This document shows, piece after piece, positions 15,381 to 43,487 of a stretch of DNA of 64,000 nucleotides. A program made the translations under genes and the position numbers. The DNA is taken from positions 64,001-128,000 of the forward strand of contig JALUTT010000056.1 of the NCBI GenBank assembly GCA_027021705.1, given 5' to 3'. Every line of letters starts with the position of its first letter. Within the stretch, counting starts at the first letter, position 1. This DNA comes from Anaerolineae bacterium (GTDB lineage Bacteria > Chloroflexota > Anaerolineae > S140-20). Under the pieces are notes generated by a model. The model ran no database searches, had not been told where the DNA came from, and worked only from the letters and a program-made list of their open reading frames with translations.

Positions 15381-15409
15381 ATTCTAACACAACCCTCCCT
15401 CCCGGTCAA
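15381..15409 (-). promoter_or_regulatory. sigma70 promoter adjacent to MITE copy 1
   Basis: Minus strand TTGACC (15409-15404), 17-bp spacer, TAGAAT (15386-15381). Confidence 0.7.
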
Positions 15410-15419
15410 CGCAGGGGGT

Positions 15420-15531
15420 CGGTGATTACCCCATCGCCCTGCCAATCCATTGACAGCAGTCCGCTATGGGACTCAACGTGCCCTCTTCCCGGACGGCCAA
15501 TCCCCCTATCCCCGAGGTCCGGGTAATCACC
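15420..15531. mobile_element. MITE-like element, copy 1 (short, diverged)
   Basis: Terminal inverted repeats CGGTGATTACCC...GGGTAATCACC. The right portion resembles the B end of the 155-bp copies. Confidence 0.7.
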
Positions 15532-15541
15532 TGGCTATTCT

Positions 15542-15678
15542 GCGGAGATAGGGAGACCAGCCGTCCACGAAGGGGGCACGAATACACGAATTAAGGACCG
15601 CCTCATTCGTGCATTGGTGAGAAATTCGTGGACGGCCTGCTACAGACCACTCTCTCGCTCACTTATGGGTAATCACCA
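15542..15678. mobile_element. MITE-like element, copy 2 (one TIR missing)
   Basis: Near-identical reverse complement of the 20461 copy, ending in TGGGTAATCACC at 15677. Confidence 0.85.
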
Positions 15679-15690
15679 TGCTGTTCTTCC

Positions 15691-15719
15691 TTGCCGGGAT
15701 GGGGATAGGCGGGTATAAT
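15691..15719 (+). promoter_or_regulatory. sigma70 promoter adjacent to MITE copy 2
   Basis: TTGCCG-17bp-TATAAT. Confidence 0.75.
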
Positions 15720-15937
15720 GAGGCTTAACTGCTAGCGCCTCCCGGCGGCTGGAAGCCGCCGCTATGAGTAGCGAAGCCGCCCCTCGGCAGCTCCTGACCC
15801 TGCCGGATCAGGAGTCTGACGAAGGCCCGGCCTTGCCTCCTGAAGCCCGCGGCTTCCGTCGCAGGGGACAGAAGCGGAAAGTGTCGGAGGATCAAGGGAG
15901 AGGCCAGCAAGCTGTCAGGTACTCGGAAGGAGAGAGC

Positions 15938-17062
15938 ATGGAACTGGACGTAGGAATGTGGCACGCTGGTGGACCGGCCTGGCCGGTGGGAGAGCCGCTC
16001 ATTCTGCTCCAATTGCGCGAGACAGTGGCCGACCTGATGACCATCGAGCGAGTCGAAGTGTTGCACCCCCCGGCCCAGGTCGTCCGCTTCCGGGGTCGCT
16101 TGATGGGAGACCCGGAGAGGATCTTTCAGCGCTTACTCCAGCGTTTCGAGGCGTTAGGATACACGCCGACGCTGGCCCGCGAGGGGACCCAGGACCTGAT
16201 CACGGCCCACCAAGGGGTGGTCCGTCCCCGCCCCGCCAGGACCTGGATCAACGCCCTTCTCTTCGTGGCGACCATCCTGACCACCCTCTACGCCGGCGCC
16301 GCCCAGCAGGGCGTTGACCTGCTGCGGGAGCCAGGCCAGTGGACAACGGGCCTCCCCTTTGCCCTCACCCTGCTGGTCATCCTGGGCACCCACGAGTTCG
16401 GCCACTACTTTGCGGCCCGCTACCACCGAGCCGCCGTCACCCTGCCCTACTTCATCCCAATGCCCTTCAACTTCCTGGGGACGATGGGAGCCTTCATCCA
16501 GCTCCGCTCGCCCATTAAGGACCGCAAGTCTCTCTTCGACATTGGCGTGGCCGGGCCACTGGCCGGTCTGGCCGTCGCCATCCCGCTGCTCCTCTACGGC
16601 CTGAGCATCTCCCCCGTGGGTCCCATTGGGCCGGGCCTGCTGGAGGGCAATTCCCTGCTCTACCTGGCCCTGAAGTACCTGGTCCACGGGCGAATCCTGC
16701 CCGGCAACGGCCTGGACGTCTGGCTCGATCCCATCGCCTTCGCCGCCTGGTTTGGGCTGTTGGTCACCTGCTTCAACCTGCTCCCCATCGGCCAACTCGA
16801 CGGCGGTCACATCGCCTACGCCCTCTGGGGACGCCGAGCCTGGACCATCGCCTCCCTCTCCATCATCATGCTCTTCGCCCTCTCCTTCTTGTGGATGGGC
16901 TGGCTGACCTGGGCGCTCCTGGTCTTCTTCCTAGGGCTGCGCCATCCGCCCCCGCTGAACGACCTAACCCCCTTAGATGGGAAGCGGCGGGCCGTGGGCA
17001 TCGCCACGGTGATCCTCTTCTTCCTGGTCTTCACCCCGGTGCCTCTCCAGGCCATCCCGTGA
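15938..17062 (+). CDS. Site-2 protease (peptidase M50) family membrane metalloprotease
   Basis: HEFGH, AGPLAG and NLLPIGQLDGGH. ATG at 15938 after AAGGAG. Confidence 0.92.
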   Translation: MELDVGMWHAGGPAWPVGEPLILLQLRETVADLMTIERVEVLHPPAQVVRFRGRLMGDPERIFQRLLQRFEALGYTPTLAREGTQDLITAHQGVVRPRPARTWINALLFVATILTTLYAGAAQQGVDLLREPGQWTTGLPFALTLLVILGTHEFGHYFAARYHRAAVTLPYFIPMPFNFLGTMGAFIQLRSPIKDRKSLFDIGVAGPLAGLAVAIPLLLYGLSISPVGPIGPGLLEGNSLLYLALKYLVHGRILPGNGLDVWLDPIAFAAWFGLLVTCFNLLPIGQLDGGHIAYALWGRRAWTIASLSIIMLFALSFLWMGWLTWALLVFFLGLRHPPPLNDLTPLDGKRRAVGIATVILFFLVFTPVPLQAIP

Positions 17063-17064
17063 GC

Positions 17065-20419: not shown

Positions 20420-20448
20420 ATGATAGCGCAAACCATCCACTACGTCAA
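20420..20448 (-). promoter_or_regulatory. sigma70 promoter adjacent to MITE copy 3
   Basis: Minus strand TTGACG-17bp-TATCAT. Confidence 0.7.
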
Positions 20449-20460
20449 GGGCGGTGCACG

Positions 20461-20615
20461 CGGTGATTACCCACAAGTGAGCGAGAGCGTGGTCCGTAGC
20501 AGGCCGTCCACGAATTTCTCACCAATGCACGAATGAGGCGGTCCTTAATTCGTGTATTCGTGCCCCCTTCGTGGACGGCCAGCCTCCCTATCTCCAAAGA
20601 TATGGGTAATCACCG
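20461..20615. mobile_element. MITE-like element, copy 3 (155 bp, complete)
   Basis: 13-bp TIR CGGTGATTACCCA; internal IR GGCCGTCCACGAA/TTCGTGGACGGCC; flanking 10-bp direct repeat GCGGTGCACG / CCGGTGCACG. Confidence 0.9.
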
Positions 20616-20652
20616 CCGGTGCACGCCGTTTTTTGCTTCGTCTGTTCGCGGA

Positions 20653-26731: not shown

Positions 26732-27010
26732 GAGGCCCTTCCAGGGCCGAGCTTCCGGGCCGAACGCACGTCGAGCTTGGAAAGCTCTCCTACAGCAGCA
26801 GACCGGATGTAGGAGGCCCTTCCAGGGCCGAGCTTCCGGGCCGAACGCACGTCGAGCTTGGAAAGCTCTCCTACAGCAGCAGACCGGGCGTAGGAGGCCC
26901 TTCCAGGGCCGAGCTTCCGGGCCGAACGCACGTCGAGCTTGGAAAGCTCTCCTACAGCAGCAGACCGGGCGTAGGAGGCCCTTCCAGGGCCGAGCTTCCG
27001 GGCCGAACGC
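26695..27010. repeat. Tandem array of GTAG-type REP pairs (81-bp unit, ~4 copies; BIME/REPIN-like)
   Basis: CTTGGAAAG recurs at 26695, 26776, 26857 and 26938. Each unit holds GTAGGA-GGCCCT-TCC-AGGGCC-GA and an inverted GTAGGA-GAGCTT-TCC-AAGCTC-GA. Lies between convergent genes. Confidence 0.92.
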
Positions 27011-27834: not shown

Positions 27835-27835
27835 C

Positions 27836-28759: not shown

Positions 28760-28800
28760 AAAAGGAAGCGGCCACGGGGCTGGAGTGCGCCCGTGGCCGC
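28760..28800 (-). terminator. Intrinsic terminator 1 in the ABC exporter leader
   Basis: Minus strand GCGGCCACGGG-cgcactccagc-CCCGTGGCCGC followed by TTCCTTTT. Confidence 0.7.
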
Positions 28801-28970: not shown

Positions 28971-28999
28971 AGTGTACCACAATTCGGGCAGGGCGTCAA
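28971..28999 (-). promoter_or_regulatory. sigma70 promoter of the ABC exporter operon, adjacent to MITE copy 4
   Basis: Minus strand TTGACG-17bp-TACACT with an extended TG. Confidence 0.75.
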
Positions 29000-29010
29000 G
29001 GTCATTTCCG

Positions 29011-29165
29011 CGGTGATTACCCACAAGTGAGCGAGAGCGTGGTCCGTAGCAGGCCGTCCACGAATTTCTCACCAATGCACGATTGAGGCGGTCCTTCATT
29101 CGTGTATTCGTGCCCCCTTCGTGGACGGCTAGCCTCCCTATCTCCAAAGATATGGGTAATCACCG
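29011..29165. mobile_element. MITE-like element, copy 4 (155 bp, complete)
   Basis: Almost identical to copy 3; flanking 10-bp repeat GTCATTTCCG / GTCCTTTCCG. Confidence 0.9.
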
Positions 29166-31166
29166 GTCCTTTCCGTCCACGGTGATCATGCCCACGACGA
29201 CCTCATCCCCCACCCGGCTGCGGGCATCGGTGAAAGCGGCGAAGGGGGAGCCGCTGTCGTACCAGCCCACCAAGAGAGGGTAGCGCCCTGGAGCTACCTC
29301 ATCCGGCAGGAGGACCTCGAAGCGCTCCCGTACCCCTTGGCCCGGCTGCCACGCCGTCGTGGGGTACAGCGCCAGGGTGGGGAGGTGGACGATGCGGGCA
29401 TCGTCCACGCCCCCCAGCCGGCTCACCGCCAGCAGGGGAGGGCGATCGGCCAGAGAGCCTAGAGCGATCCAGTCGTAGCGCAGGCGGAACCGCCGCCCGC
29501 CCAGGGGCTCCACCTCTGCCCCCACCAACCCGATGGCCTCCCCAAAGCGGGCCTGAAGGGGGGAAGGATCGGCGGCAAACCACTCGACCTGCTGCCCCAG
29601 CGCCCGGCCGGCCGGTGGGTGGCGCTGGAAGAGGAGTAAGCCATCCCGGGCAGCCACCAGCCCGAAGGCCGGATCGCGCAGCAGCAGCGTGATGGCAGGC
29701 ACGTCGTACATCACGCCGCCGGCGATGTAGGCCCCCTTGACGGGAACGGCGTAGTCGAAGAGGGCATCGGGCAGCGCGTAGGCCACCTCATCCAGACGAC
29801 GGGCCAGACGCAGGGAGGCCGGGCTGGGGGGCTCGTCCCCATAGCGCACCAGGTAGAGGGTCGGGCGGTTGGTCAGGCGTGGGGCCAGAAAGGTGGAGAC
29901 CGCCAAGGGGAGGTCGGGAGGGACTTGGGCCGGCAGCCAGCGATCCTTAAGGGCATCGCGGGAGGTACGGCCATAGGCCCAGGGGTCAAGGCCCCGCCCG
30001 GGCACCCCCGTCCAGAAGAGGGGGCTGAGAGGGGTGTCCACGAGCCCCGCGTTGAAGAGGGCAACGATGGCCAGGGTCAGGAAGACCTGCCCCCGCCAGG
30101 GCGGGCGGGTTCTCCGCCGATCGGAGGCCTGAAGTGCCGGCCCCCTGACCAGGGCAGCGGCACCGTAGACAATGGCGGCCACCAGGAAGGGGACGGCCAG
30201 GGCGTAGTGGTGGTAGCGGTAGTCATAGACGGGGCCGGGGCCGGTGCTGAGGAGCACGGGGAGGGCGATGATGGCGGCCGGGAGGAACCAAGAGGGGGCG
30301 TGGCGTCCCAGCAGCAGGGCCGGGCCGAAGACTACGATGCCGTTCAGGAGCCGGTCGCCCACCGTGGCAGGCACCAACCGGTTCAGCGCCCCGAAGTAGA
30401 AGGTCAGCAGGTAGTCCAGGCCGGTGGGAGAGGGAGGAGGCATCTGGGCCGGGGCAAAGAGGGGCTGCACGACCAGGAGGGCCATCCCTGTCCAGGCCAG
30501 ACCGGCCAGGATGGTGATCCGGCCCATCCGGCGCTCGCCCCGCCATCCGATGACCACCCCCAGGGTGGTGACGACGATGCCCACGTAGAGCTTGCAGCTG
30601 AGGGCCAGGGCCAGCCAGAGGGCGTAGGGCCGCCAGGCCCGACGGTCGAGAGCCTCGATGGTCAGGAGCAGCAAGGGCATCGCCAGGGTGTCGCCGTGAA
30701 AATCGAAGAGCACAGCGGTCTGGGCAACAGGGTAGAGCAGGTAGCTCAGCATCAGCGCCCGAGCAGCGTTCCGGCTGCCGGTGTGGCGCAGGACCAGCCG
30801 GTAGACAGGCAACGCCCCCAACGTGAAGAGGGCCGCCTGGACCACCAGCAGGAGGCGGGGATCGGGCCAGAGCCGGTAGGGGAGGGCGAGGAGGAAGTAG
30901 ATCACCTCGACGTGGAGGGCAAGACGGCTGAGGTTACCTTCCGTAAAGGTGAACTCCAGGGGCCGCCCGTGACCGGCACTCCAGATCGCCTGAGCCATAT
31001 TGCCCAGATCGAACATCCCAACGTTGTAAGCCCCGTAGCGCATCAAGCTGAGGGTGGTCAGCATCCCCCCCACGACCAGTGCCATCACCAACGCCCACCC
31101 ATCCATTGGAGGCGGATGATGGCCCCTAACCCTCGCCGCCGGTCGGTCAACGGCCTGGCTCATCAT
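29160..31166 (-). CDS. DUF2079-like multi-TM membrane protein (putative GT-C glycosyltransferase) with C-terminal Ig-like domain
   Basis: FDLGNMAQAIW, H.E.I, LFDFHGDTLA and YRYHHY motifs. The stop codon lies inside the MITE TIR. Confidence 0.8.
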   Translation of the reverse strand: MMSQAVDRPAARVRGHHPPPMDGWALVMALVVGGMLTTLSLMRYGAYNVGMFDLGNMAQAIWSAGHGRPLEFTFTEGNLSRLALHVEVIYFLLALPYRLWPDPRLLLVVQAALFTLGALPVYRLVLRHTGSRNAARALMLSYLLYPVAQTAVLFDFHGDTLAMPLLLLTIEALDRRAWRPYALWLALALSCKLYVGIVVTTLGVVIGWRGERRMGRITILAGLAWTGMALLVVQPLFAPAQMPPPSPTGLDYLLTFYFGALNRLVPATVGDRLLNGIVVFGPALLLGRHAPSWFLPAAIIALPVLLSTGPGPVYDYRYHHYALAVPFLVAAIVYGAAALVRGPALQASDRRRTRPPWRGQVFLTLAIVALFNAGLVDTPLSPLFWTGVPGRGLDPWAYGRTSRDALKDRWLPAQVPPDLPLAVSTFLAPRLTNRPTLYLVRYGDEPPSPASLRLARRLDEVAYALPDALFDYAVPVKGAYIAGGVMYDVPAITLLLRDPAFGLVAARDGLLLFQRHPPAGRALGQQVEWFAADPSPLQARFGEAIGLVGAEVEPLGGRRFRLRYDWIALGSLADRPPLLAVSRLGGVDDARIVHLPTLALYPTTAWQPGQGVRERFEVLLPDEVAPGRYPLLVGWYDSGSPFAAFTDARSRVGDEVVVGMITVDGKDR

Positions 31167-32178: not shown

Positions 32179-34499
32179 CCCGTCCCTCGCCATCGTTGGA
32201 AGACCGTCGGCAGGTAGAGCCGGACCAAGGTAGCGGAAGGGGGCGGACGCCGGTAGTAGCCCGTCCCCGGTGAGGCGAGCCAGAGGGTGTGAGGGGGGGT
32301 GGGCTCCACGGCGATGGCGTTGGCGAAGGGCCACGCCAGCCCCTCGTTGAAGGCGATCCACGTCTGTCCGCCGTCGGCGCTGAAGAGGACACCGTGGGAG
32401 GCGGGGTCGTATCCGCCGGCGTAGAGGGCACTGCTGGAAGCGATGAGGAGTTGGTCGGGGTCGGTGGGGAAGGGGACCACATCGCGCAAGAAGTCGTCCG
32501 TCCACAGCTTCCTCCAGGTCGCGCCCCCATCCCGGCTGCGGTACAGCCCTTTCCCCGGTCCGAAGACGGCCACGTAAACCCATCCTGAGCGGACCGGGTC
32601 GGGCCGAATGGCGGCCACGCCCTCCCAATCGCTTTCCCAGAAGCCGGTGCCGGGCGTGCCCACCATAGCCGGCGGACCGATGGGGTCCCACGATCCGGGA
32701 GCGCCACCCTGAGAGGACCGCCAGAGGCCCGCTTCACCGCCGGCGTAAACCAGACGGCCGTCCTGAGGGTCCACGGCGGTGTAACGGCAGCCGTTGCAGT
32801 CCAAGACCAAGCTCCAACTCTCTCCATCGTCCCGGCTGCGGTAGACGTCGCCGTCCACAGTGATGAAGAGGGTGCGGGTGTCAGAGGGGCTGGTGGGGTC
32901 CACGCTCAGGCCGGCGGGGATGCCGTCGGGGAGGCCGTCGTTGGCCGGCCGCCAGGTTGCGCCATAATCGTCGCTGCGCAGCAGGGTGTGCCTGCTCTCC
33001 TCGATCTCGTTCGCCTGGGTGATCCAGACCACGTTGGGGCGGGTAGGGTCGGTGGCAACGGTCATGCTATTGCCGCCGTAGCCGTTCCAGGTCCCCACGT
33101 AGTCAGGGTCGTTGCAGTTCTGCCAACTCGCGCCGCCGTCATCGCTGCGGAAGCAGCCCAGGTCGGGCATCGCCAGGTAGACGTGGGTGGCGTCGGCGCT
33201 GATGGCCAGGCCGAAGGTCACGATGTTGTCCACCCCCCGGGATCTCCACCGGCCCGGCGCGACCTCGTCGGTGTAGAGGGGAGCGAAGGTGCGCCCGTCG
33301 TCCCGGCTGGCCCAGAGGAACTGGCTGTCGGCCCACAGGAGTGCATCGGGGTCCGACGGGTCCACCCCCAGGGTCTTGGCATCGCCGTTGAAACTGATGC
33401 CGTAGGCGTGGTCCTCGTCCGTCCAGCCCACCTCCCAGTCGCTCTTGTCGCCGATGAGGTTCCAGTGGACGCCGCCATCGGTGGATTCCCACAGCGCGGG
33501 GTAGTCCATAGCGATGAGGCGGATGGCCCGTTGGTCGTCGGCGTCCAGCCAGATCAGCCAGTTGCCGGCTTCCAGGTTGTCTCCGTTGGTCAGCTGCTCC
33601 CACGTCCAGTGGCCGTCGAAGGTGCCTCGGTAGAGGTACCCCCCTTGGGGGTCGTCGTAAACGCAGGTGTAGCCAGGGTCCCACACGTCGCCGTAGGTGG
33701 TCAGGTAAAGGGTATTGGCATCGTTGGGATCCAGGGCAACGTCGGCGATCTGCCCCAGGTGGGTGGCGATGGGAGTCCAGTGGACGCCGCCATCGGTGCT
33801 CTCGTAGAGGGCGGCCGGACCACAGGCGAAGCGGCCCTCCCCGGCCAGCAGGTAGAGGACCTCTTCGTCTTCCCAGTCCACGATCAGCCGGAGGATGTGC
33901 AGGCCGCCGGGCAGGGTATCGTCGCTGACGCGCTCCCAGCTCAGACCCCGGTCGGTGGTCCTGTAGACCACGCCGTCAGCGATGTTGTGCTGCGAGTGGT
34001 AGGCTGCGTAGCCCACCCGAGGGTTGCTGGGAGCGACGGCGATGTCAGTGATATAGCCGTGATCCAGGACGGGTTCGAAAGTGTCGCCGTAGTCGTCGCT
34101 GCGGAAGATGCCCATCTCGGTGCCCAGGTAGAGGATGGCCGGGTCGTCGGGATCGAAGCCGAGGCCGCTGACATGGGTGGAGGTCAGGCCACGGAAGGAG
34201 CCGATGACATCCCAGCTCTTCCCACCGTCGCGGGAGCGGTAGGCCCCGCTCAGGTCGCTGGCAGCCAGGATGATCCCGGTCGGTCCGGCCCCGATGGTGG
34301 AGAAAGCACCGCCCCCGCCGGGGTTGGTCCGCTGCCACCGGGAGGGGGGAAGGGAGGGGAGGGAGGGCCGGGTCGGCGCGGTGAGAGGAGGGACGGTCAG
34401 GGCGATGGTGGGGGAGCCCAGGTTCGGCCTCCCACAGGCAAAGAGGAAGACGAGGAGGAAGAGCAGAGCTGGACAGGCCCTGGACTTTGGCGACTTCAT
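32175..34499 (-). CDS. Secreted/lipoprotein BNR (Asp-box) repeat beta-propeller, GH74/VPS10-like
   Basis: Lipobox LFAC, many S.DGG.(S/T)W Asp-boxes and a C-terminal LYLPTV tail. Confidence 0.85.
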   Translation of the reverse strand: MKSPKSRACPALLFLLVFLFACGRPNLGSPTIALTVPPLTAPTRPSLPSLPPSRWQRTNPGGGGAFSTIGAGPTGIILAASDLSGAYRSRDGGKSWDVIGSFRGLTSTHVSGLGFDPDDPAILYLGTEMGIFRSDDYGDTFEPVLDHGYITDIAVAPSNPRVGYAAYHSQHNIADGVVYRTTDRGLSWERVSDDTLPGGLHILRLIVDWEDEEVLYLLAGEGRFACGPAALYESTDGGVHWTPIATHLGQIADVALDPNDANTLYLTTYGDVWDPGYTCVYDDPQGGYLYRGTFDGHWTWEQLTNGDNLEAGNWLIWLDADDQRAIRLIAMDYPALWESTDGGVHWNLIGDKSDWEVGWTDEDHAYGISFNGDAKTLGVDPSDPDALLWADSQFLWASRDDGRTFAPLYTDEVAPGRWRSRGVDNIVTFGLAISADATHVYLAMPDLGCFRSDDGGASWQNCNDPDYVGTWNGYGGNSMTVATDPTRPNVVWITQANEIEESRHTLLRSDDYGATWRPANDGLPDGIPAGLSVDPTSPSDTRTLFITVDGDVYRSRDDGESWSLVLDCNGCRYTAVDPQDGRLVYAGGEAGLWRSSQGGAPGSWDPIGPPAMVGTPGTGFWESDWEGVAAIRPDPVRSGWVYVAVFGPGKGLYRSRDGGATWRKLWTDDFLRDVVPFPTDPDQLLIASSSALYAGGYDPASHGVLFSADGGQTWIAFNEGLAWPFANAIAVEPTPPHTLWLASPGTGYYRRPPPSATLVRLYLPTVFQRWRGTG

Positions 34500-34554
34500 C
34501 GGCTACAATCCCGGTGTTGTTGAGCAGTCACCACATCGGCAGGAGGTTCATCCG

Positions 34555-35526
34555 ATGAAACAAGTATACCACGACCGTTCGGGTTCGGACAAGGCCCCCT
34601 CCCCCAACGATCCCTCCGTGGCGGTTTTCGGCAACGTGACCCTCGACGTCATCTGCTTCCCGGTCAACGATGTCCCTCGCTACGAGTCCATCGCCTTCGA
34701 GCGGGCCGTCATTTCACCGGGCGGCTGTGCCTCCAACACCGCCATCGGCCTGGCAGCGCTGGGCGTCCCGACGCTGCTGGTGGCCCGCGTCGGCGATGAC
34801 GAGGCCGGAGAGATGGCCCAGCGCTACTGGCAACGGGCCGGGGTCGAGACCCGCTTCGTCCGCCGCGTCGCCGATGTGGGGACGGCGGTCAGCGTGGGGC
34901 TGGTGGACAGGGAGTTCCAGCCCCGCTTCGTACACACGCCGGGGGCCAACGCAGGTCTCACGGTGGACGACCTGGACCTGCCCACCCTCGCGGAGGCCGG
35001 CGTCCGCTGGCTCCACGTGGCTGGCTACTTTGTGCTGCCGGGGCTGCTGGATGGGCGGCTGGCCGACGCCTTGGCCCAGGCCCATTCCCTGGGGATGCGC
35101 ACCTCCCTAGACGTGGTGCGGAACATACGCATGGACGACCCCCAGGCGCGGGCTGTCTTCTGGTCTTGCCTGCCCCACTTGGATGTCTGGATGGGTAACG
35201 CCCACGAAGCCCAACGCCTGACGGGGACGGAGGACCCGGTGGCGGCGGCCCAGGCCCTGCGGGCCGGCGGGGTGCGCCTCGTCCTTGTCAAGCTAGGGGC
35301 AGCGGGCTGCCGCGCCGAGGGTGAGGGCTTCCAAGGTGTCGTCCCGGCACCTCGGGTGGATGTCGTGGACACCACCGGGGCGGGCGACGCCTTCGCCGCC
35401 GGCTTCATCGCCGCGACGCTGCGCGGCGCCGATGTGGAGGCGGCCTGCCGGGCGGGCAACGAGGCCGGTGCCCGGGTGGTGGGCCGACTGGGGCCGGTAG
35501 CCGCCTGGTTCGACGGCATGGCGTGA
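34555..35526 (+). CDS. PfkB-family carbohydrate kinase
   Basis: PGGCASNTA and VDTTGAGDAF. ATG at 34555 after AGGAGG. Confidence 0.92.
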   Translation: MKQVYHDRSGSDKAPSPNDPSVAVFGNVTLDVICFPVNDVPRYESIAFERAVISPGGCASNTAIGLAALGVPTLLVARVGDDEAGEMAQRYWQRAGVETRFVRRVADVGTAVSVGLVDREFQPRFVHTPGANAGLTVDDLDLPTLAEAGVRWLHVAGYFVLPGLLDGRLADALAQAHSLGMRTSLDVVRNIRMDDPQARAVFWSCLPHLDVWMGNAHEAQRLTGTEDPVAAAQALRAGGVRLVLVKLGAAGCRAEGEGFQGVVPAPRVDVVDTTGAGDAFAAGFIAATLRGADVEAACRAGNEAGARVVGRLGPVAAWFDGMA

Positions 35527-35689
35527 TGGGTTCCCCTTGAGCACCGAAAAGCTCCAACCCTCAGAGGGTCATTGCGCAAATTCGCTTTTGGTGGTAGGAT
35601 AGGGGAAGGAATTCGGAGCTTCAACTCCAAATTTGTTCGAGGTTCGTTGGCCGGTTCTCTCCCGTTTCTTAGCAGGAAGGAGAAGGCAA

Positions 35690-38600
35690 ATGCAGCGAGA
35701 CCGATCGGTAAAACGTTCTGCCGGACCTCGTGCTCCTCTTAGGCAGCCTCTGTACGGAGGTCTGGCCCTCTTGATGTTGATCCTGGGAGTGGTGGGTCTG
35801 ACGAGCGCCGCCAGCAAACCGAGCTTCCTCACCGAGAGCACTTCCAACGTCTCGGCCGGCACCAAGACCTACCGCATCTGGTACACCACCGACTGCAACG
35901 GCGGTGCCGACTGCGAATGCGACACCGCCCTGGACACGGATACCAGCGACCCACCTGACGGTACTCCCGACCAGGACTCCCCCAACGATTGCATCGCCAC
36001 CGTGGACAGCGATTCGGACGGTGTCTTCGACACCGGCCCCGACGATGACAGCGACGGTGTGCTGAACGTGGTGGACCTGGACTGGTTCGGGGGCGGGACC
36101 GGTGTCGTGGAGAGCGTGCCCCGCAACGTGCAGCGCACCATCGCCCGGTACGTCAACGACTGGGGCCTCAAAGAGCCCAAGTGGGACCGGGATACGAACC
36201 GCAACATCTACATCTACGACATCGCAGCCCTAGGCATCTCCTATGGCGATGGGAGTGGAGAGGAACTGGACACCGAGTGGATGCTGACCCAGGCACCCGA
36301 GCCCCGGGGCACCGTGCTGCACGAGCTCTGGCACAACACCCAGTTCGCCTACGGCGTCAGTGCCGGAAAGTGGTTGGTGGAGGGCCAGGCCCGGATGCTC
36401 CAGGACAAGGTCTTCGACGACCTGGACAACCGGGTGGGCAGTCGCTACCACAACTCGGTGGCGGCCTACCTGGGCAACCCCACCTACGTCATCAGGGAAG
36501 ACCGGGATGACGACGGCACGGGAGAGTTCGCCCAGGCCAAGGGGCTGCTGGGGGCCAGCTACAACGCCTCCCTCTGGTGGACTTACGTCGCCGAGCAAGC
36601 GGGCACCCTGTACACCGGCACGGCCGGTGAGGGGATGGACGCCCTGGAGGCGGTGTTGAAGCAAGCCGACGACCACGGTCGCCAAGGGGTGGATGCCGTG
36701 GACCGGGTGCTGCGCGACCGCCTGGGCCGGGGCTTCGACGACACCTTCTGGGACTTCACCATCGCCAACTACGCCAAGGAGTTCGACCTGAGCCTGCTGG
36801 ACCACAGCTACCTGGACGGTCGGGACCCGGAGCGAGTGCTCACCTACCGGGATGAGAAGCGCACCCCTCCTGACCAACTGATCTACCGCTACAACGACCC
36901 CACCTTGGGGTGGGTCAACGGTCCGAAGCGGCAGCGCTTCACCGGTACCACGCTCTTCAGCGGGGCCAACGGCCGCGTAGACGCGATGGACCCGGAGGTC
37001 AACGACCCCGATGCGATGTCGGCCTACGGGGCCAAGTACTACGAGGCCGAGGTCAACGCCGATTGCCTCCTCATCTACTGGCGGGTCCTCGGCGATCCGG
37101 GAGCCCGTTTCATGCACTCCTGGATGATGATCCAAGAGGATTCCAACGGTGACGGCTCTGAGGAGATCATCACGCTGTTGCGCAGCGAGGGGGAGGACTT
37201 CGCCCGGGCGGCTTGGATTCCCCGCCGGAGCACCGGCCTGCCCCAGTACACCCGGATGGTGGCCATCGTCGCCACCGGCAGCCGGGCTTACGGCTACAAC
37301 TGGGAACTGGGCTGTACCCAGCCCAGCGTTAACATCGTCTCGCCGACGACGGCCAATCCGGCCTACGTGGGGGACCCCGGCGAACCCGGGCGCTTCCTGC
37401 TCTGGCTGGAGGTGACGGGGGCGGCGGGCACCAGCACCTACGTGGCCGGGCTGGAGTGGAGCCGCGACTTCACCGTCACCGTGGGGACCGATGTCGCCCA
37501 GATCCTCAACGGGGGCTACGTGCAGAACCAGTACTGGCTGGTGGTCCAGGCCCCCACCAAGCCCGGTGCCAGCCTCGGCGACAAGTTCGATGTCACCGTG
37601 CAACTGGGACCCAGCACCAGCACCTCCGACACGGAGGTCCAGGCCGTCGTCTACGACCTGCGGACCAGCGATCAGGTCCTGGTGGTGGACGCCAGCGGCA
37701 GCATGGGGTACAACGACAAGCTGGTCTCCGCCAAAGCCGCGGCCCGCCTCTTCGCCGACGTCAAGCAGCAGTTCGACCAATTGGGTGTGGTCAGCTTCAG
37801 CACGGATGCCACCCAGGAGTTCCCCCTGACGGTGGTGCCGGACCAAGATGATGCGGCCGGTGTGCGGGCCAGCGCCCAGACGGCCATTAACGGGATCACG
37901 GAGAAGACCACCACCTCCATCGGCGACGGCCTGCAGATGGGCCAGAGCATGTTGGCTGCCAGCGGCAGCCCCGATCACCAGTGGGTGATGGTGCTGCTCA
38001 GCGACGGGATGGAGAACGAGCCCCTCTACTGGAGCAACGTCCGAGCCAGCATCGTCGCCTCCGGGACGAAGGTACACGCCATCGCTTTAGGGCGGGACGC
38101 CGACGAGGAGCTGATGCGGGAGATCGCCGAGGCCACCTGCGGCTCCGTCTGGGTGGACCAGTGCTACCACTACATCGAGGAAAGCGGGGTCCTGACGACG
38201 ACGGGGATGAGCACCGCTGCCGTCAGCAACCTGCCCAACGCCCTGGCCGACATCTACCGGCGGGCCGAGGAGACCATCGCCGGTCACCAACGGCTCTGGC
38301 AGGGGGGTGGCACACTCAGCGGCAGCCAGTCCATCCCCGTGACCATCGCCGAGGATGGCGTGCGGAACGCCTTCTTCAGCTTCCACTGGAACGATTCGAC
38401 GGCCCCCTTGAACGTGAGCATCACCGGCCCCGGGGGGGTCTCCTTCATCCAGCTTAGCGATGGCAAGAACCACCAGGTCTTCTACGCCGATAAATTGCCG
38501 CCGGGCACCTACACCCTTCACCTCTCCGCGCCCGGCGGGGCCACCACCTGGATCGGCAGCCTCTCCGGTCGGATGGTCTACGGCACCGAGATGTACGCCT

Positions 38601-40321
38601 TCCTGGACAACACCCAGGCCGAGCGCTACCCCGGCCTCCCGGTGCGCCTGCAGGCCAGCCTGACCGACCACAAAGGGCCGGTGACCGGGGCGGTCATCAG
38701 CGCCACCGTCTACCACCCCGACCTGGGCGTTGAGGTAGTCCGGCTGGTGGACGACGGCGGCCCCTATGACGATGTGGCCAACGACGGCGTCTACGGCTAC
38801 GTCTACGACCGGATCAACCGGCCCCTCAAGATAGACGTTCAGTTGGGCCACACTTGGGTCTTCGACCTCTACGCCACCGGGGTCAACAACGATGGCAAGC
38901 CCTTCGAGCGCTACCAGCGGCTGACCTACACCCCCTTCCTGGGCCGGGAGCAGGTCTCGCTGGACACCGATGGCGACGGGATGTTGGACCGATGGGAGGA
39001 CCGCTTCGAGGGCCCCTCGACCGGTGTGGCCGACGACGGTGAAGACCCGGATGGGGATGGCCTGACCAACAAGGAGGAGTTTGAGCGAGGGACCAATCCC
39101 GACGACCCCGACACCGACAAGGGGGGAGAGACCGACGGGAGCGAGGTCGCCCGAGGGCAGAACCCCCTCTTCACCGCCGACGACGCCATCCCGCCCATCA
39201 CCGACTTCTGGGTGGAGAACCAGCCCGAGAGCGTGATCCTGCACTTCAACCCCCGGCCCGAGTACCAGAAGATGCGGATCTACCGGCGCACGGGTCTGAC
39301 GGGGACCTTCACCCTGATCACCGAGGTCGTCCTGCCCTCGATGACGACCTCCCTGGCCTCCGCGCCGTTGGTGCCCAGCCGTAGCGTGTCCGGCTTCGAC
39401 CCCTCCAAAGGGCAAGTCCGCGACACCGGGCTGGTCAACGATCAGGACTACTTCTACTACCTCCAGCCGGTGGGGGCCTCCAGCGTGGTGGGAGCCCCCA
39501 GCGAGGTGCGCTACGCCGAACCGGCCAAGGACCCCTATCAGCCGGAGGGGGTGGTGGTCATCAACGACGACGATCCCTTCACCACCAGCAAGAACGTGAC
39601 CCTCACCTTCCAGGGGCTGACGCCGCCCGACGGGAGCCTCGACATCCGCGCCGTGCAGATCAGCAACTCTCCAGAGCTGACGGGTGTCGCCTGGCAGCCC
39701 TTCCAGCCGGAGATCCCCTGGACCCTCGATCCCGATCCGACGACGGGAGTAGCTTTCGTCCACGTCCGCTTCCGCGACGGCGCGGGCAACGAGAGCGATG
39801 TGATCTACGGCGATGGGATCGTCTACCGGCCTCCCCTCATCCTGCCGCCCGGCCTGCTGGACTTCGGCTGGGTCATCGCCGACTTCCAGGACCCTTGGTT
39901 CAAGGACCTAACCATCCTCTACACCCCTCTGCGCTGGCCTGACCTGGGCCTGGGCAGCTCGGCTCTGCGTGCCTCGGCGGTGGATCAGGCGGGGAAGCCC
40001 CTCTTCTACGCCGGCATCGGCTTTGAGCTCCAGGCGATGGACGCCCTGAGCCAGCCGGTTACCCAGTTCGATCGCCCCTTCACCCTGACGGTCAGCTACG
40101 AAGATTGGCAATGGCAGAGCGCCGGGATCGGCTCCGAAGACTCGCTGAACCTCTACTGGAACAGCAGAGGGACCTGGGAGCCGGTGCTGCCTTGCACCGG
40201 CTGCAGCCACGACCCGACGGAGAACGTCTTCATCATCCCGCTGACCCACCTAACCCGGTTCGCCCTGTTGGGGAGGCCGGCCTCCCCCGTCTACCTGCCT
40301 ATCGTCTTCAAGGGGTTCTGA
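35690..40321 (+). CDS. Large secreted protein: HExxH metallopeptidase-like domain, VWA domain, Ca-binding Asp-rich repeats, FN3-like domain, C-terminal domain with YLPIV tail
   Basis: Signal peptide; HELWH...WLVEGQA; MIDAS motif DASGSM...LSDG; DTDGDG repeats; ends ...HLTRFALLG...VYLPIVFKGF. Confidence 0.8.
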   Translation: MQRDRSVKRSAGPRAPLRQPLYGGLALLMLILGVVGLTSAASKPSFLTESTSNVSAGTKTYRIWYTTDCNGGADCECDTALDTDTSDPPDGTPDQDSPNDCIATVDSDSDGVFDTGPDDDSDGVLNVVDLDWFGGGTGVVESVPRNVQRTIARYVNDWGLKEPKWDRDTNRNIYIYDIAALGISYGDGSGEELDTEWMLTQAPEPRGTVLHELWHNTQFAYGVSAGKWLVEGQARMLQDKVFDDLDNRVGSRYHNSVAAYLGNPTYVIREDRDDDGTGEFAQAKGLLGASYNASLWWTYVAEQAGTLYTGTAGEGMDALEAVLKQADDHGRQGVDAVDRVLRDRLGRGFDDTFWDFTIANYAKEFDLSLLDHSYLDGRDPERVLTYRDEKRTPPDQLIYRYNDPTLGWVNGPKRQRFTGTTLFSGANGRVDAMDPEVNDPDAMSAYGAKYYEAEVNADCLLIYWRVLGDPGARFMHSWMMIQEDSNGDGSEEIITLLRSEGEDFARAAWIPRRSTGLPQYTRMVAIVATGSRAYGYNWELGCTQPSVNIVSPTTANPAYVGDPGEPGRFLLWLEVTGAAGTSTYVAGLEWSRDFTVTVGTDVAQILNGGYVQNQYWLVVQAPTKPGASLGDKFDVTVQLGPSTSTSDTEVQAVVYDLRTSDQVLVVDASGSMGYNDKLVSAKAAARLFADVKQQFDQLGVVSFSTDATQEFPLTVVPDQDDAAGVRASAQTAINGITEKTTTSIGDGLQMGQSMLAASGSPDHQWVMVLLSDGMENEPLYWSNVRASIVASGTKVHAIALGRDADEELMREIAEATCGSVWVDQCYHYIEESGVLTTTGMSTAAVSNLPNALADIYRRAEETIAGHQRLWQGGGTLSGSQSIPVTIAEDGVRNAFFSFHWNDSTAPLNVSITGPGGVSFIQLSDGKNHQVFYADKLPPGTYTLHLSAPGGATTWIGSLSGRMVYGTEMYAFLDNTQAERYPGLPVRLQASLTDHKGPVTGAVISATVYHPDLGVEVVRLVDDGGPYDDVANDGVYGYVYDRINRPLKIDVQLGHTWVFDLYATGVNNDGKPFERYQRLTYTPFLGREQVSLDTDGDGMLDRWEDRFEGPSTGVADDGEDPDGDGLTNKEEFERGTNPDDPDTDKGGETDGSEVARGQNPLFTADDAIPPITDFWVENQPESVILHFNPRPEYQKMRIYRRTGLTGTFTLITEVVLPSMTTSLASAPLVPSRSVSGFDPSKGQVRDTGLVNDQDYFYYLQPVGASSVVGAPSEVRYAEPAKDPYQPEGVVVINDDDPFTTSKNVTLTFQGLTPPDGSLDIRAVQISNSPELTGVAWQPFQPEIPWTLDPDPTTGVAFVHVRFRDGAGNESDVIYGDGIVYRPPLILPPGLLDFGWVIADFQDPWFKDLTILYTPLRWPDLGLGSSALRASAVDQAGKPLFYAGIGFELQAMDALSQPVTQFDRPFTLTVSYEDWQWQSAGIGSEDSLNLYWNSRGTWEPVLPCTGCSHDPTENVFIIPLTHLTRFALLGRPASPVYLPIVFKGF

Positions 40322-40481
40322 GGGCGGTGGCGATCAGCCGTGGGAGCCGGGTCCGGTCTGGTGCCGGATCCGGCTTCGCTTCTACGGGGCTACCCAAGGC
40401 TTCGATCGAGGGTATAATAGAGGGAGCAGGGGGAGGTCCGGTGGCAAAACGACCGTGCGAGTTCGAGCTTAGGGAGGAACG

Positions 40482-41255
40482 ATGAGCATCCACGTACCCG
40501 ACCGGCACAACGAGAAGCTGCATCGTCTCGTGGAGCGGATCAACGCCGATGCCGAGTTGATCCAGCTCTGGAAGTGTGCCAACGTCAACGCCGTGGACCG
40601 GACCGGCATCAGCGACCACGGTGAGGTCCACATCCGCATCGTCGCCAACGCGGCGCTGCGCATCCTGCGCCTGCTGGTGGAGGCCGGCGTCGAACCCAGC
40701 GTCGTCACCCACCACGGGCTGACGCCGGAGGATGCCGAGTTGGTCGTCGTGCTGGCCGCCTGTCTGCACGACCTGGGCATCGCCGTGCACCGGGACGACC
40801 ACGAATGGTACAGCCTGATCCTGGGCTATCCCAAGGCCCGACAGCTTCTGAGCGGCATCTACGAGGAGCCGGCGCTGACCATTATGGTCTCCGAGGTGCT
40901 CCACGCCGTCATCGCCCACCGCTGGGACGTGCGTTGCCTGACCATCGAGGCGGGCGTGCTGAAGGTGGCCGACGCTCTGGACATGACCGAGGGCCGTTCT
41001 CGCATCCCCTTCGAGGCAGGCCAGGTCAACATCCACTCCGTCTCCGCCCTGGCCGTCGAGAACGTGGCCATCGAGCGGGGGGAGGAGCGGCCGGTGCGCA
41101 TCGCCATCCGGCTGGGAAATTCGGCCGGCATCTTCCAAGTGGACGAACTGCTCAAGCGCAAGCTCCAGAACTCCACCTTAACGCCTTACGTCGAGGTCGT
41201 CGCCCATCTGGAAGGGGAGATGGAGAAGCGGCTGGTGGGCATCTACCGGCTCTGA
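40482..41255 (+). CDS. HD-domain metal-dependent phosphohydrolase
   Basis: DHGEVH, LHDLG, H and VADALD motifs. Confidence 0.9.
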   Translation: MSIHVPDRHNEKLHRLVERINADAELIQLWKCANVNAVDRTGISDHGEVHIRIVANAALRILRLLVEAGVEPSVVTHHGLTPEDAELVVVLAACLHDLGIAVHRDDHEWYSLILGYPKARQLLSGIYEEPALTIMVSEVLHAVIAHRWDVRCLTIEAGVLKVADALDMTEGRSRIPFEAGQVNIHSVSALAVENVAIERGEERPVRIAIRLGNSAGIFQVDELLKRKLQNSTLTPYVEVVAHLEGEMEKRLVGIYRL

Positions 41256-41270
41256 GGGCCGGAAATTCCC

Positions 41271-41425
41271 CGGTGATTGCCCATATCTTTGGAGATAGGG
41301 AGACCGGCCGTCCACGAATGGGGCACGAATACACGAATTAAGGACCCCCTCATTCGTGCATTGGTGAGAAATTCGCGGACGGCCTGCTACGGACCACGCT
41401 CTCGCTCCCTTGTGGGTAATCACCG
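41271..41425. mobile_element. MITE-like element, copy 5 (155 bp, complete, opposite orientation to copies 3 and 4)
   Basis: TIRs CGGTGATTGCCCA / TGGGTAATCACCG; flanking repeat GGAAATTCCC / CGAAATTCCC. Confidence 0.9.
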
Positions 41426-41437
41426 CGAAATTCCCTC

Positions 41438-41466
41438 TTGACAGAATTTCTCAAAGTGGTCATAAT
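41438..41466 (+). promoter_or_regulatory. sigma70 promoter of the acyl-CoA synthetase, adjacent to MITE copy 5
   Basis: TTGACA-17bp-CATAAT. Confidence 0.8.
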
Positions 41467-41514
41467 GGACTTACCTGCCCAGTTCTTACCCCCTGCATCC
41501 AAAGGAGGTTCCCA

Positions 41515-43137
41515 ATGGCTGCTTACCCCTTCCAACTGTTGCTCAAGCACATCCTCCACTACGGCGTGGCCTGGGCTCCCGACCAGGAGATCGTCTACCG
41601 GGACCAGGTCCGCTACACCTACCGGGATATGGCCCAGCGGGTGCTCCGGCTGGCCGGCGCCCTGCGCACCCTGGGCGTGGAGAAGGGAACCAAAGTCGGC
41701 GTCATCGAGTGGGACAGCCATCGCTACCTGGAAATCTACTTCGCCGTTCCCGGCATCGGAGCCATCCTCCACACCATCAACCCTCGCCTGGCCCCCGAGG
41801 ACCTGGTCTACACGATGGCCCACGCCGAGGACGAGGTGCTCATCTTCCACGAGGACTTCCTCCCCCTGGTGGAACGGGTGCGCCCCCGCCTGCCCTCCAT
41901 CCGTAAGTACGTGCTGATCACCGACAAGGCGGAGAAGCCGGAGGTCAAGGTTGACGCCGAGTACGAGGAACTCCTGGCCGGCGCCACCCCCCTGGACGAA
42001 CTGCCCGACCTGGACGAGAACACTCAGGCCACCCTGGCCTACACCACCGGAACGACGGGCAAGCCCAAGGGGGTCTACTTCAGCCACCGCCAGTTGGTCC
42101 TGCACACGCTGGTGGGTGGCGTCACCCTGGCCGCCTTCGGCAACTACGGCGGCCTGAACAAGCACGATGTCTACATGCCCCTGACCCCGATGTTCCACGT
42201 TCACGCCTGGGGCCTGCCCTACATGGCCACCCTCTTCGGCCTGAAGCAGGTCTACCCCGGCCGCTACGAGCCGGAGATGCTCCTCCGCCTCATCTTGGGG
42301 GAGAAGGTGACCTTCAGCCACTGCGTGCCCACCATCCTCCAGATGATCGTCACCGCGCCCGCCGTTCAGAACCTGGACCTGAGCCGCTGGAAGGTGATCA
42401 TCGGTGGGGCCCGGCTCTCCAAGGGGCTGGCGCTGCAGGCGACAAAGCTGGGCATCAAGGTCTACGCGGGCTACGGGATGTCGGAGACCTGCCCGGTCCT
42501 CACCATCGCCAACCTCAAGCCGTTCATGGAGGACGAGTGGGACGAGGAGAAGCAACTGGACTGGGCCATCAAGACCGGCTTCCCGGTCCCCTTGGTCCAC
42601 CTGAAGGTGGTGAGCCCGACGGGCGAGGAGGTGGCCCACGATGCCCACGAGACGGGCGAAATCGTAGTGCGGGCTCCCTGGCTGACCGAGGGGTACTACA
42701 AGGAGCCGGAGCGGACGGAGGAGCTGTGGGCCGGTGGGTGGCTCCACACGGGCGATGTGGCCCACGTGGACGAGTACGGCTACGTCCAGATCGTGGACCG
42801 GCTCAAGGACGTCATCAAGAGCGGAGGCGAGTGGATCGTCTCTCTGGAGCTGGAGAACCTCCTCAGTCTGCACGAGGGGGTGCAGGAGGCCGCCGTCATC
42901 GGCATCCCCGACGAGAAGTGGGGCGAGCGGCCCCTGGCCATCGTCGTGCCTCGGGAAGGGTACAAGGAGCGTCTGACGGACGAGGCGCTCAAAGCCCACC
43001 TGACCAAGTTCGTCGAGGATGGGGTGATCACCTCCTGGGCAGTGCCCGACCAGTACGTCTTCGTGGATGAACTGCCCAAGACCAGCGTGGGCAAGATTGA
43101 CAAGAAGGTACTGCGAAGTCGCCACGGCGCTGCCTGA
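41515..43137 (+). CDS. AMP-forming medium/long-chain fatty-acid--CoA ligase
   Basis: YTTGTTGKPKG, GYGMSET, LHTGD and LPKTSVGKIDKK. ATG at 41515 after AGGAGG. Confidence 0.95.
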   Translation: MAAYPFQLLLKHILHYGVAWAPDQEIVYRDQVRYTYRDMAQRVLRLAGALRTLGVEKGTKVGVIEWDSHRYLEIYFAVPGIGAILHTINPRLAPEDLVYTMAHAEDEVLIFHEDFLPLVERVRPRLPSIRKYVLITDKAEKPEVKVDAEYEELLAGATPLDELPDLDENTQATLAYTTGTTGKPKGVYFSHRQLVLHTLVGGVTLAAFGNYGGLNKHDVYMPLTPMFHVHAWGLPYMATLFGLKQVYPGRYEPEMLLRLILGEKVTFSHCVPTILQMIVTAPAVQNLDLSRWKVIIGGARLSKGLALQATKLGIKVYAGYGMSETCPVLTIANLKPFMEDEWDEEKQLDWAIKTGFPVPLVHLKVVSPTGEEVAHDAHETGEIVVRAPWLTEGYYKEPERTEELWAGGWLHTGDVAHVDEYGYVQIVDRLKDVIKSGGEWIVSLELENLLSLHEGVQEAAVIGIPDEKWGERPLAIVVPREGYKERLTDEALKAHLTKFVEDGVITSWAVPDQYVFVDELPKTSVGKIDKKVLRSRHGAA

Positions 43138-43164
43138 CGCCGCCCCCAGGACAGGCGTCTTGCC

Positions 43165-43200
43165 AAGAGGCCGGGCATCGCTGCCGTGCCCGGCCTCTTT
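43165..43200 (+). terminator. Intrinsic terminator after the acyl-CoA ligase
   Basis: AAGAGGCCGGGCA...TGCCCGGCCTCTT(T). Confidence 0.7.
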
Positions 43201-43294
43201 CCCAATGTATGGGGCTGCGCCGGTGGACGATGGCTCCAGCGAGAAGTCCTTCTGGGACATCCTCGGCGCGGCGAACCCCTGATCTGCATTCATT

Positions 43295-43447
43295 GGTGAT
43301 TACCCATATCTTGGGGGTAGGGAGATCAGCCGTCCACGAATGGAGCACAAATACGCGAATTAGGAGCCGCCCCATTCGTGCATTCGCGAGAAATTCGTGG
43401 ACAGCCTACTGCAGCCCACTCCCCCACTCACTTGTGGGTAGTCACCG
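43295..43447. mobile_element. MITE-like element, copy 6 (diverged)
   Basis: GGTGATTACCCA...TGGGTAGTCACCG with the same internal palindrome; degenerate flanking repeat TGCATTCATT / GGCATCCACT. Confidence 0.85.
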
Positions 43448-43458
43448 GGCATCCACTC

Positions 43459-43487
43459 TGGTCCAATTGCGAGAAACGTGGCATAAT
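43459..43487 (+). promoter_or_regulatory. Extended -10 promoter of the two-component operon, adjacent to MITE copy 6
   Basis: TGGTCC (weak -35)-17bp-CATAAT with TGn extension. Confidence 0.55.

Follow-up and report, generated by a model that had tools for sequence, protein, structure and literature searches.

The window analysed here is a 64,000-nucleotide stretch of contig JALUTT010000056.1. Within it the terminal inverted repeat (TIR) core GGTGATTACCCA occurs 19 times at two mismatches or fewer, against 3.3 occurrences expected, and none of 100 shuffles reached 19. The cores pair into six elements, at 15421-15531, 15539-15677, 20462-20614, 29012-29164, 41272-41424 and 43295-43446, which are copies of a miniature inverted-repeat transposable element (MITE). 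A first-pass annotation of this DNA had placed beside each of the six an external -35/-10 pair with a 17-bp spacer, and direct reading agrees in all six cases; the distance of 10-12 that it gave, counted from CGGTG, equals 11-13 nt from the GGTG core in the window copies. The features are listed below; the promoters are predicted from the sequence, and TSD denotes the target-site duplication.

15381..15409, minus strand: promoter of copy 1, leftward; -35 box TTGACC (15404-15409), 17-bp spacer, -10 box TAGAAT (15381-15386)
15419..15533, no strand assigned: MITE copy 1, a 111-bp variant with the same TIR cores at 15421-15432 and 15520-15531
15539..15679, plus strand: MITE copy 2, model positions 16-153; R end at 15677, then 2 terminal nt
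15691..15719, plus strand: promoter of copy 2; TTGCCG, 17 bp, TATAAT; 13 nt from the core
20420..20448, minus strand: promoter of copy 3; TTGACG (20443-20448), 17 bp, TATCAT (20420-20425)
20460..20616, minus strand: MITE copy 3, R end at left; 8-bp TSD CGGTGCAC at 20452-20459 and 20617-20624
28971..28999, minus strand: promoter of copy 4; TTGACG (28994-28999), 17 bp, TACACT (28971-28976); 12 nt from the core
29010..29166, minus strand: MITE copy 4, R end at left; TSD of 7-8 bp, TCATTTCC / TCCTTTCC, with one mismatch
41270..41426, plus strand: MITE copy 5; 8-bp TSD GAAATTCC at 41262-41269 and 41427-41434
41438..41466, plus strand: promoter of copy 5; TTGACA, 17 bp, CATAAT; 3 bp from TSD to -35 box
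43293..43448, plus strand: MITE copy 6; TSD of about 7 bp, GCATTCA / GCATCCA
43459..43487, plus strand: promoter of copy 6; weak -35 box TGGTCC, 17 bp, TG-n-CATAAT

The right half of copy 1 is similar to the L end of the 153-bp family, and its -35 box lies 11 nt from the GGTG core; copy 2 abuts copy 1 and lacks the L terminus. In copy 3 the TSD and the -35 box are 3 bp apart. Copy 6 is the most diverged of the window copies (73-82% to the others). A gene for an M50 peptidase (ATG 15764) lies downstream of the promoter of copy 2, a ribosome binding site and an ATG at 41516 follow that of copy 5, and a GAF histidine-kinase gene (ATG 43533) lies downstream of that of copy 6. The duplicated target separates the TIR from the -35 box, and the promoters are therefore host DNA and not element-borne, as the annotation had held; their sequences also vary among copies.

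The MITE family across the genome

The MITE is 153 bp long and non-coding, and it is bounded by a 14-nt TIR, (G/C)CGGTGATTACCCA, that extends to about 19 nt. An nhmmer search of the whole draft genome gave approximately 181 non-overlapping loci, 105 of them full length, with a median identity of 96% to the consensus, and 298 TIR cores were counted at one mismatch or fewer. Flanking direct repeats fall in register 11, 12 or 13, which corresponds to a TSD of 7, 8 or 9 bp, the mode being 8; the repeat is exact over at least 7 nt in 62 of 103 full copies. The TIR, the 7-9-bp TSD and the number of loci bear out the annotation's view of a non-autonomous element. Neither the MITE nor its TIR is present in the same-family genomes G001-G003.

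Ordinary bacterial MITEs such as Correia, ERIC and RUP are short and non-coding, with a TIR, a TSD, a folding core and many intergenic copies. The core of the present MITE also folds strongly (z -5.7); unlike these families, however, it occupies one defined position relative to promoters, and its core hairpin is found also alone and as a tandem array.

Position of insertions relative to predicted promoters

Flanks were scored for promoters by log-odds, a position passing when its score exceeded the 99th percentile of random positions. By this test a sigma70-type promoter lies 11-15 nt past the TIR core in 87 of 103 full copies, whereas at offsets 30-34 on the same flanks 7 of 103 pass; 16 of 103 lack a promoter-like site. 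A strict promoter is found at offsets 11-15 in 66 of the 103, where the background is 1.9e-4 per position; at offsets 12-14 strict promoters occur on 49 of 141 R flanks and 30 of 125 L flanks, and there is about one at each other offset. The fixed distance that the annotation had read from six copies is thus strongly enriched genome-wide, although the flanking motifs are predicted promoters.

The TSD had been described as abutting the -35 box, but 3 bp intervene: in 44 of the 47 informative copies the 7-9-bp duplication stops that far short of the -35 box, on its upstream side. Duplications of 7, 8 and 9 bp match offsets of 12, 13 and 14, respectively, and the spacing is constant within +/-1 bp, so that genome-wide the -35 box lies 10-12 bp from the tip of the element and 12-14 nt from the GGTG core. 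Three tandem pairs preserve the repeated target. One 8-bp target appears thrice in the pair G000:C156:16617/16783, on the left, between the elements and on the right; the pair C75:22747/22920 has the repeated 8-bp target on the left and between, and C99:82995/83084 has it between the elements and also on the right, there with one mismatch. The claim that the same end always faces the promoter holds for the window (6 of 6) but not for the genome, where scoring gives 51 copies with the R end towards the promoter and 36 with the L end (binomial p 0.13), and the strict definition 37 and 29.

Among contigs of four DNA runs from three studies that fall on 28800-43900, no joint skipping a copy, and hence no empty site, was found; these contigs break at the three copies within that interval. 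In one run pair, 23 nt are deleted at the left junction of copy 6.

The proposal that insertion is aimed at complete sigma70-type promoters, at a fixed distance and with transcription directed away from the element, is upheld by these data. A -10 box accompanies 82-87% of the TTG-type -35 boxes adjacent to the MITE, against 2.5-18% genome-wide and 6-11% of TTG-type hexamers in ORF-free DNA, a small control that makes up 1.3% of the genome. Because of this abundance of -10 boxes we infer guidance by holoenzyme or sigma, that is, an enzyme that would read a promoter occupied by RNA polymerase holoenzyme and not a DNA word. It is less probable, though still worth weighing, that the transposase reads a TTGACA-like word at a fixed distance without RNA polymerase, and that complete promoters are enriched by loss of insertions elsewhere. 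The exact anchor, with its 3-bp gap in 44 of 47 copies, is in keeping with such a reader, as is the -35 hexamer being the best-conserved feature of the flank; selection against genic insertions, moreover, is certain to exist and must also shape the distribution, and it is partly controlled for by the ORF-free DNA. A reader of the -35 box alone, however, would leave many copies at lone intergenic hexamers, and even in that small control (1.3% of the genome) the hexamers with a -10 box fall far below the proportion beside the MITE.

A probable partner insertion sequence with a Tn5-type transposase

Full-length insertion sequences (IS) with the same TIRs, for which the annotation had suggested a search, exist in other Chloroflexota genomes. 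A transposase family of 80 loci includes 68 distinct elements bounded on either side by the TIR core, the two cores being 1340-1520 bp apart. The partner IS is about 1.43 kb long (most are 1420-1460 bp) and encodes a transposase of approximately 442 amino acids; MITE and IS share the ends (G/C)CGGTGATTACCCA-YAWST, and the terminus is CT at both ends in 24 of 63 partner elements. These elements, too, lie beside predicted promoters: among the 64 for which both flanks were present, strict promoters at offsets 11-15 accompany 35 (the 3' side in 19, the 5' side in 14 and both sides in 2), and by score 38 of 63 pass at these offsets, compared with 1-4 of 63 at three control offsets.

A structure model of the transposase (pLDDT 84) has as its best structural match in the PDB the Tn5 transposase, over the whole length (Foldseek E 4e-15, TM 0.62-0.65), whereas the IS256-type ISCth4 gives E 0.04 and TM 0.18 against the same model. 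In a profile search of the PDB the six best matches were Tn5 transposase (E 0.011), and these were the only transposases among the matches listed. D208 and E344, the second D and the E of the catalytic triad, align to the Tn5 positions, and the first D is probably D116, judging from invariant columns. The residues W337, R340, E344 and Q351 are invariant and give W-R-E-Q in place of the YREK signature Y-(2)-R-(3)-E-(6)-K. Among six members scanned, the NCBIfam IS4, IS701 and IS1380 models stayed below cut-off (best 43 bits vs 160), Pfam DDE_Tnp_1 passed in one, and the ISKra4, ISLre2 and IS256 models gave no match.

The available text of De Palmenaer et al. (2008, PMC2266710) describes the IS50 subgroup of IS4 as elements of 1350-1550 bp with 8-9-bp repeats and the end consensus CW------Y---CA-A--W-. 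The partner resembles IS50/Tn5 in its best structural and PDB sequence match, in its size (1.42-1.46 kb), in repeats of 7-9 bp, which we count as a likeness, and in its ends, CT-GGTGATTACCCA-YAWST, which fit this consensus where the terminus is CT. It differs in having W-R-E-Q for YREK and in not reaching the curated IS4-family score, and by the criterion in the same text a variant signature marks a separate family. Promoter targeting is not described for the IS50 subgroup there, and the word 'promoter' is absent from that text.

The transposase gene was not found in the window's own genome, a draft that is 94.9% complete in 183 contigs: tblastn with nine family proteins gave nothing at E <= 0.01, and no TIR pair 1-3 kb apart is present. 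Another genome, G305, has three transposase copies, all frameshifted; tblastn with the N-terminal half of its protein likewise gave nothing in the own genome, and tblastx gave only compositional noise. Genome G142 has eight contig starts that end in the TIR, about 112 nt in; none of these was linked to an interior contig, and a search there for a homologue of the G305 protein found none.

The annotation had instead implied a Mutator-like partner of the TnGBS/ISLre2 type, and this is not borne out. According to the parts of Guerillot et al. (2014, PMC3942029) available to us, TnGBS ICEs and ISLre2 (p-MULT 3) and the ISKra4 group (p-MULT 4) have Mutator-like DDE transposases that target promoters, inserting 15-17 bp upstream of the -35 box with 8-9-bp direct repeats. 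Mobilization of the MITE by an ISKra4-family transposase is quite improbable in our view. The own genome does contain an ISKra4-family transposase fragment (contig C168, 247 bits vs a cut-off of 205), and the group is known to insert upstream of sigmaA promoters on either side, with 8-9-bp repeats (PMC3942029, in the text available). However, none of 12 ISKra4-family loci, from the own genome and 11 relatives, has the TIR core at one mismatch or fewer, the DNA beyond the end of the C168/C41 gene lacks such a TIR, the core brackets 68 elements with a Tn5-type transposase, and the distance is 10-12 bp here. The N-terminal part and the ends of the C168 element were not found.

Within the same portion of that source, the MITE resembles TnGBS, ISLre2 and ISKra4 in its fixed distance upstream of the -35 box, in its use of housekeeping-sigma promoters, in sparing genes and, as we count it, in the length of its repeats (7-9 vs 8-9 bp). 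Both orientations are used here, as they are by the ISKra4 group and by ISLbu1, whose two inverted repeats are near-identical. Unlike those elements, the MITE is non-autonomous, with about 180 copies, its TIR-linked enzyme has a Tn5 fold, and, as the annotation had anticipated, it has a geometry of its own.

Proposed mechanism and its meaning

We consider it very probable that the 153-bp MITE, which has the ends of a Chloroflexota Tn5/IS4-type IS, is inserted next to complete sigma70-type promoters by a transposase acting in trans. A DDE transposase of this type (~442 aa) would move the MITE, making staggered cuts, the nearer one 3 bp upstream of the -35 hexamer and the second another 7-9 bp away from it in the same direction, so that the target would correspond to approximately -39 to -46 in conventional numbering. 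Either end of the MITE may face the promoter. The DNA further upstream of the target would be displaced by the element, while the promoter core and the gene, lying downstream of both cuts, would remain intact. The proximal cut would fall where RNA polymerase holoenzyme bends the DNA, with sigma region 4 and, on the proximal UP subsite, the alpha C-terminal domain. The transposase may sense the holoenzyme by contact with sigma or alpha, or through a preference for the polymerase-made bend just upstream of the -35 box.

Random or AT- or intergenic-biased insertion followed by purifying selection, or promoters carried by the element, can hardly be credited: intergenic accumulation is a general habit of MITEs and, in a genome of 66% G+C, no DNA is richer in AT than the promoter-facing flank, but the +/-1-bp spacing, the 7-, 8- and 9-bp duplications that track offsets 12, 13 and 14, the independent insertions into the same 8 bp and the empty control offsets on the same flanks all argue against the former, and the host target between the TIR and promoters of varying sequence against the latter.

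In the available text of PMC3942029, fixed-distance insertion upstream of bacterial promoters is described for Mutator-like elements only, and a large IS survey singles out a special IS-to-gene distance for ISLre2 and ISKra4 only (PMC9208149, in the portion available). No report of promoter-targeted IS4/Tn5-type elements or MITEs was found in a literature search of limited coverage. A Tn5-type lineage is now seen to share the habit, which is therefore convergent; a single genome supplies about 90 scored insertions, and the rule, 3 bp from the -35 box, is sharper. The fuller proposal, that promoter homing arose independently in the Tn5/IS4-type lineage and that the enzyme reads a polymerase-bound promoter and not a DNA word, is put forward tentatively, with the balance tilting slightly against it. 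If it is true, the bend that the polymerase induces would serve generally as a landing mark, which would explain the convergence of unrelated transposase families on promoter homing and which would be open to in vitro study with a relative of the best-understood transposase.

A relative of the best-studied transposase thus becomes available for working out promoter recognition, and the MITE copies chart about 90 likely promoters in the genome of an uncultured member of the Chloroflexota. In the host, the core promoter is kept and the DNA upstream of about -47 is replaced, by which distal UP-element or activator sites could be lost. Other MITEs, with the same TIR and different cores, lie beside promoters in genomes G153 and G208.

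The miniature element and its promoters in the window

The core of the terminal inverted repeat (TIR), GGTGATTACCCA, occurs 19 times in the window at up to two mismatches, against 3.3 expected, and the cores pair into six elements at the positions proposed by the first-pass annotation. Five of the six belong to a single 153-bp family of non-coding elements (MITEs), whose two ends are here called R and L; the member at 15539 lacks the L terminus, and the sixth element, at 15421-15531, is a variant of 111 bp that shares the TIRs. Read base by base, all six copies are accompanied by a -35/-10 pair with a 17-bp spacer, which starts 11-13 nt past the GGTG core of the TIR and is directed away from the element. 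The stretch between TIR and -35 box holds a duplicated host target, as in the two copies listed below, and the promoters are therefore host DNA and not element-borne, as had been proposed. Recognisable genes downstream of two of these promoters encode an M50 peptidase and a GAF histidine kinase.

Target duplications of two MITE copies in the window
20452-20459 and 20617-20624: target duplication CGGTGCAC
41262-41269 and 41427-41434: target duplication GAAATTCC

Copies 1 and 2 stand back to back, with the two divergent promoters on their outer sides (window 15419-15679), copy 2 being the one without its L terminus. At the left junction of copy 6 (window 43283-43305), 23 nt are absent from X2 and X4, two sets of contigs from separate DNA runs, a strain difference at the edge of the element. 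The window also contains an 81-nt tandem repeat (26688-27010; 4.0 copies, 97% alike).

Promoter adjacency and insertion geometry across the genome

The genome searched (5.19 Mb in 183 contigs, 66% G+C) contains 298 TIR cores at up to one mismatch, and a profile made from 84 copies identified 181 non-overlapping MITE loci, 105 of them full length, with a median identity to the consensus of 96%. A strict promoter was required to have xTGxxx and xAxxxT hexamers, separated by a spacer of 16-18 bp and agreeing with TTGACA and TATAAT, respectively, in at least 4/6 positions; across the genome such promoters occur at a background rate of 1.9e-4 for each position and strand. Strict promoters start at offset 12, 13 or 14 past the core in 15, 24 and 10 of 141 R flanks and in 5, 17 and 8 of 125 L flanks, while each remaining offset has about one. 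Promoters were also scored by log-odds with custom weights, the threshold being the 99th percentile of the scores at 20,000 random positions; 87 of 103 full copies with 80-nt flanks exceeded this threshold, compared with just 7/103 at offsets 30-34 of the same flanks. The pile-up and the scores against their controls therefore confirm the enrichment predicted by the first-pass annotation: the MITE is adjacent to sequence-predicted promoters far more strongly than chance would allow. The claim that the same end always faces the promoter, however, does not hold beyond the window, since strict promoters in the 103 full copies lie at R in 37, at L in 29, at both in none and at neither in 37, and the score places R in 51 and L in 36 (binomial p 0.13).

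The adjacent sequences are complete predicted promoters and not lone hexamers. A -10 box at 16-18 bp accompanies 82-87% of MITE-adjacent TTG-type -35 boxes, compared with 2.5-18% of such boxes genome-wide and 6-11% in DNA without any 100-codon open frame, a small control covering 1.3% of the genome.

Among 62 MITE copies with an exact flanking direct repeat of at least 7 nt, the repeat is in register 11, 12 or 13 in 11, 35 and 14 copies, and in register 10 or 14 in one copy each; duplication lengths of 7, 8 and 9 bp follow if the element tip is placed 2 nt outside the core. Duplication length tracks promoter offset, with 7, 8 and 9 bp paired with offsets 12, 13 and 14 in 9, 23 and 11 copies, and the gap from duplication to -35 box is 3 bp in 44/47 informative copies, the remaining three having 4 bp. 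From this constant gap and the pairing of length with offset it follows that one cut is fixed relative to the -35 box, while the second varies by +/-1. Targets have also been used repeatedly. In a tandem pair on contig C156 (copies at 16617 and 16783; site 16617-16945), two full copies have the same 8-bp target left, between and right, in a site between two divergent promoters that is similar to window 15419-15679. A pair at C75:22747/22920 repeats its 8-bp target left and between, and one at C99:82995/83084 has it between and, with one mismatch, right. Because the same 8 bp were hit repeatedly, these sites argue for aimed insertion over the survival of random insertions.

The probable partner insertion sequence and its transposase

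When 401 genomes of the class were scanned with the 13-nt TIR, 160 occurrences were found in the window's own genome, 47 in G153, and fewer in G142, G208 and G305. In G305 a TIR pair 1,384 bp apart encloses a frameshifted transposase gene, and a promoter of the TTGACA-17-TATATAAT type lies 12 nt from the pair; full-length relatives have about 442 aa. Eighty loci encoding such relatives were taken from species-representative genomes, with titles nearly all of Chloroflexota MAGs, and 68 distinct loci among them are bounded on either side by the TIR core, with a distance of 1340-1520 bp between the two cores. The first-pass annotation had suggested looking for full-length insertion sequences with the same TIRs, and these elements are such; in the window's own genome, tblastn with nine proteins of the family gave no match at E <= 0.01. 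Of 64 such elements, 35 have a strict promoter at offsets 11-15 (3' side 19, 5' side 14, both 2), and by score 38/63 pass, versus 1-4/63 at three control offsets; the full-length elements thus follow the same promoter-spacing rule as the MITE. In G153 and G208, further MITEs that share these ends but have different cores are likewise found next to promoters.

No NCBIfam model reached its cut-off for the transposase (best IS4, 43 bits vs 160; IS701, 40 vs 150; IS1380, 32 vs 180), and no Mutator-type NCBIfam model appeared; Pfam DDE_Tnp_1 passes in 1/6 members. An AlphaFold model from 23 sequences (pLDDT 84, pTM 0.86) has Tn5 transposase as its best PDB structural matches (E 4e-15 to 6e-13, TM 0.60-0.65), compared with E 0.04 and TM 0.18 for the IS256-type ISCth4. 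In a profile search of PDB sequences the six best matches were Tn5 transposase chains, the sole transposases among those listed (E 0.011). Both the second aspartate and the glutamate line up with those of Tn5, but the YREK signature is replaced by W-R-E-Q. In size, repeat length and ends the insertion sequence agrees with the IS50 subgroup as it appears in Table 1 of PMC2266710. The transposase, which the first-pass annotation had left to be classified, is placed in the IS4 superfamily, as a divergent lineage closest to IS50/Tn5 and outside any named family. G153 encodes a homologue of this Tn5-like transposase. At locus L027 (G305:C48, about 2100-3549) a copy of the insertion sequence lies just upstream of an rpoD-like sigma-70 gene.

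What these data show is a DDE family of the cut-and-paste type: in its own copies and in the derived MITEs alike, the proximal edge of the target lies 3 bp upstream of the -35 box of a complete promoter, with the element in either orientation. The enzyme may recognise promoters to which holoenzyme is bound. In conventional numbering, the 8-bp target would span about -39 to -46, which is the proximal UP subsite. There the alpha C-terminal domain is placed next to sigma region 4 and the DNA carries a bend, and recognition could be by direct contact or by a preference for the bend.

Known promoter-homing elements and neighbouring repeats

A fragment from the interior of a transposase gene of the ISKra4 family (Mutator-like) occupies C168:1-1123 of the window's genome (247 bits vs a cut-off of 205) and runs on through a 40-nt overlap into the end of C41, outside the window; the ends of this element were looked for and not found. 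The genome thus also contains a member of a family already known to aim at promoters. As a partner for the MITE it is unlikely, the C168 locus and 11 related loci being without the TIR core. In PMC3942029, TnGBS/ISLre2 insert 15-17 bp upstream of the -35 box, and ISKra4-group elements with symmetric repeats do so at the same distance in both orientations. Compared with that account, the behaviour here is the same in kind but differs in enzyme family, distance (10-12 bp) and miniature form. No report of promoter targeting by IS4/Tn5-type elements or MITEs was found in the literature searched.

The core of the MITE is a hairpin with 32-nt arms, GCCGTCCACGAA...TTCGTGGACGGC. The same hairpin is found without TIRs in the window (60777-60873), and on another contig (C77:115628-116265) about 8 units of it, repeating every 86 nt or so, are arranged head to tail. 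Repeats matching its arms are present in three further genera of the class (G016, G018, G019). The MITE thus has the appearance of a separate palindromic repeat enclosed by insertion sequence ends. Just outside the window (C56:140371-140500), a MITE L end is broken after 38 nt by an insert of about 100 nt bordered by CTAG, which may represent another family of small elements.
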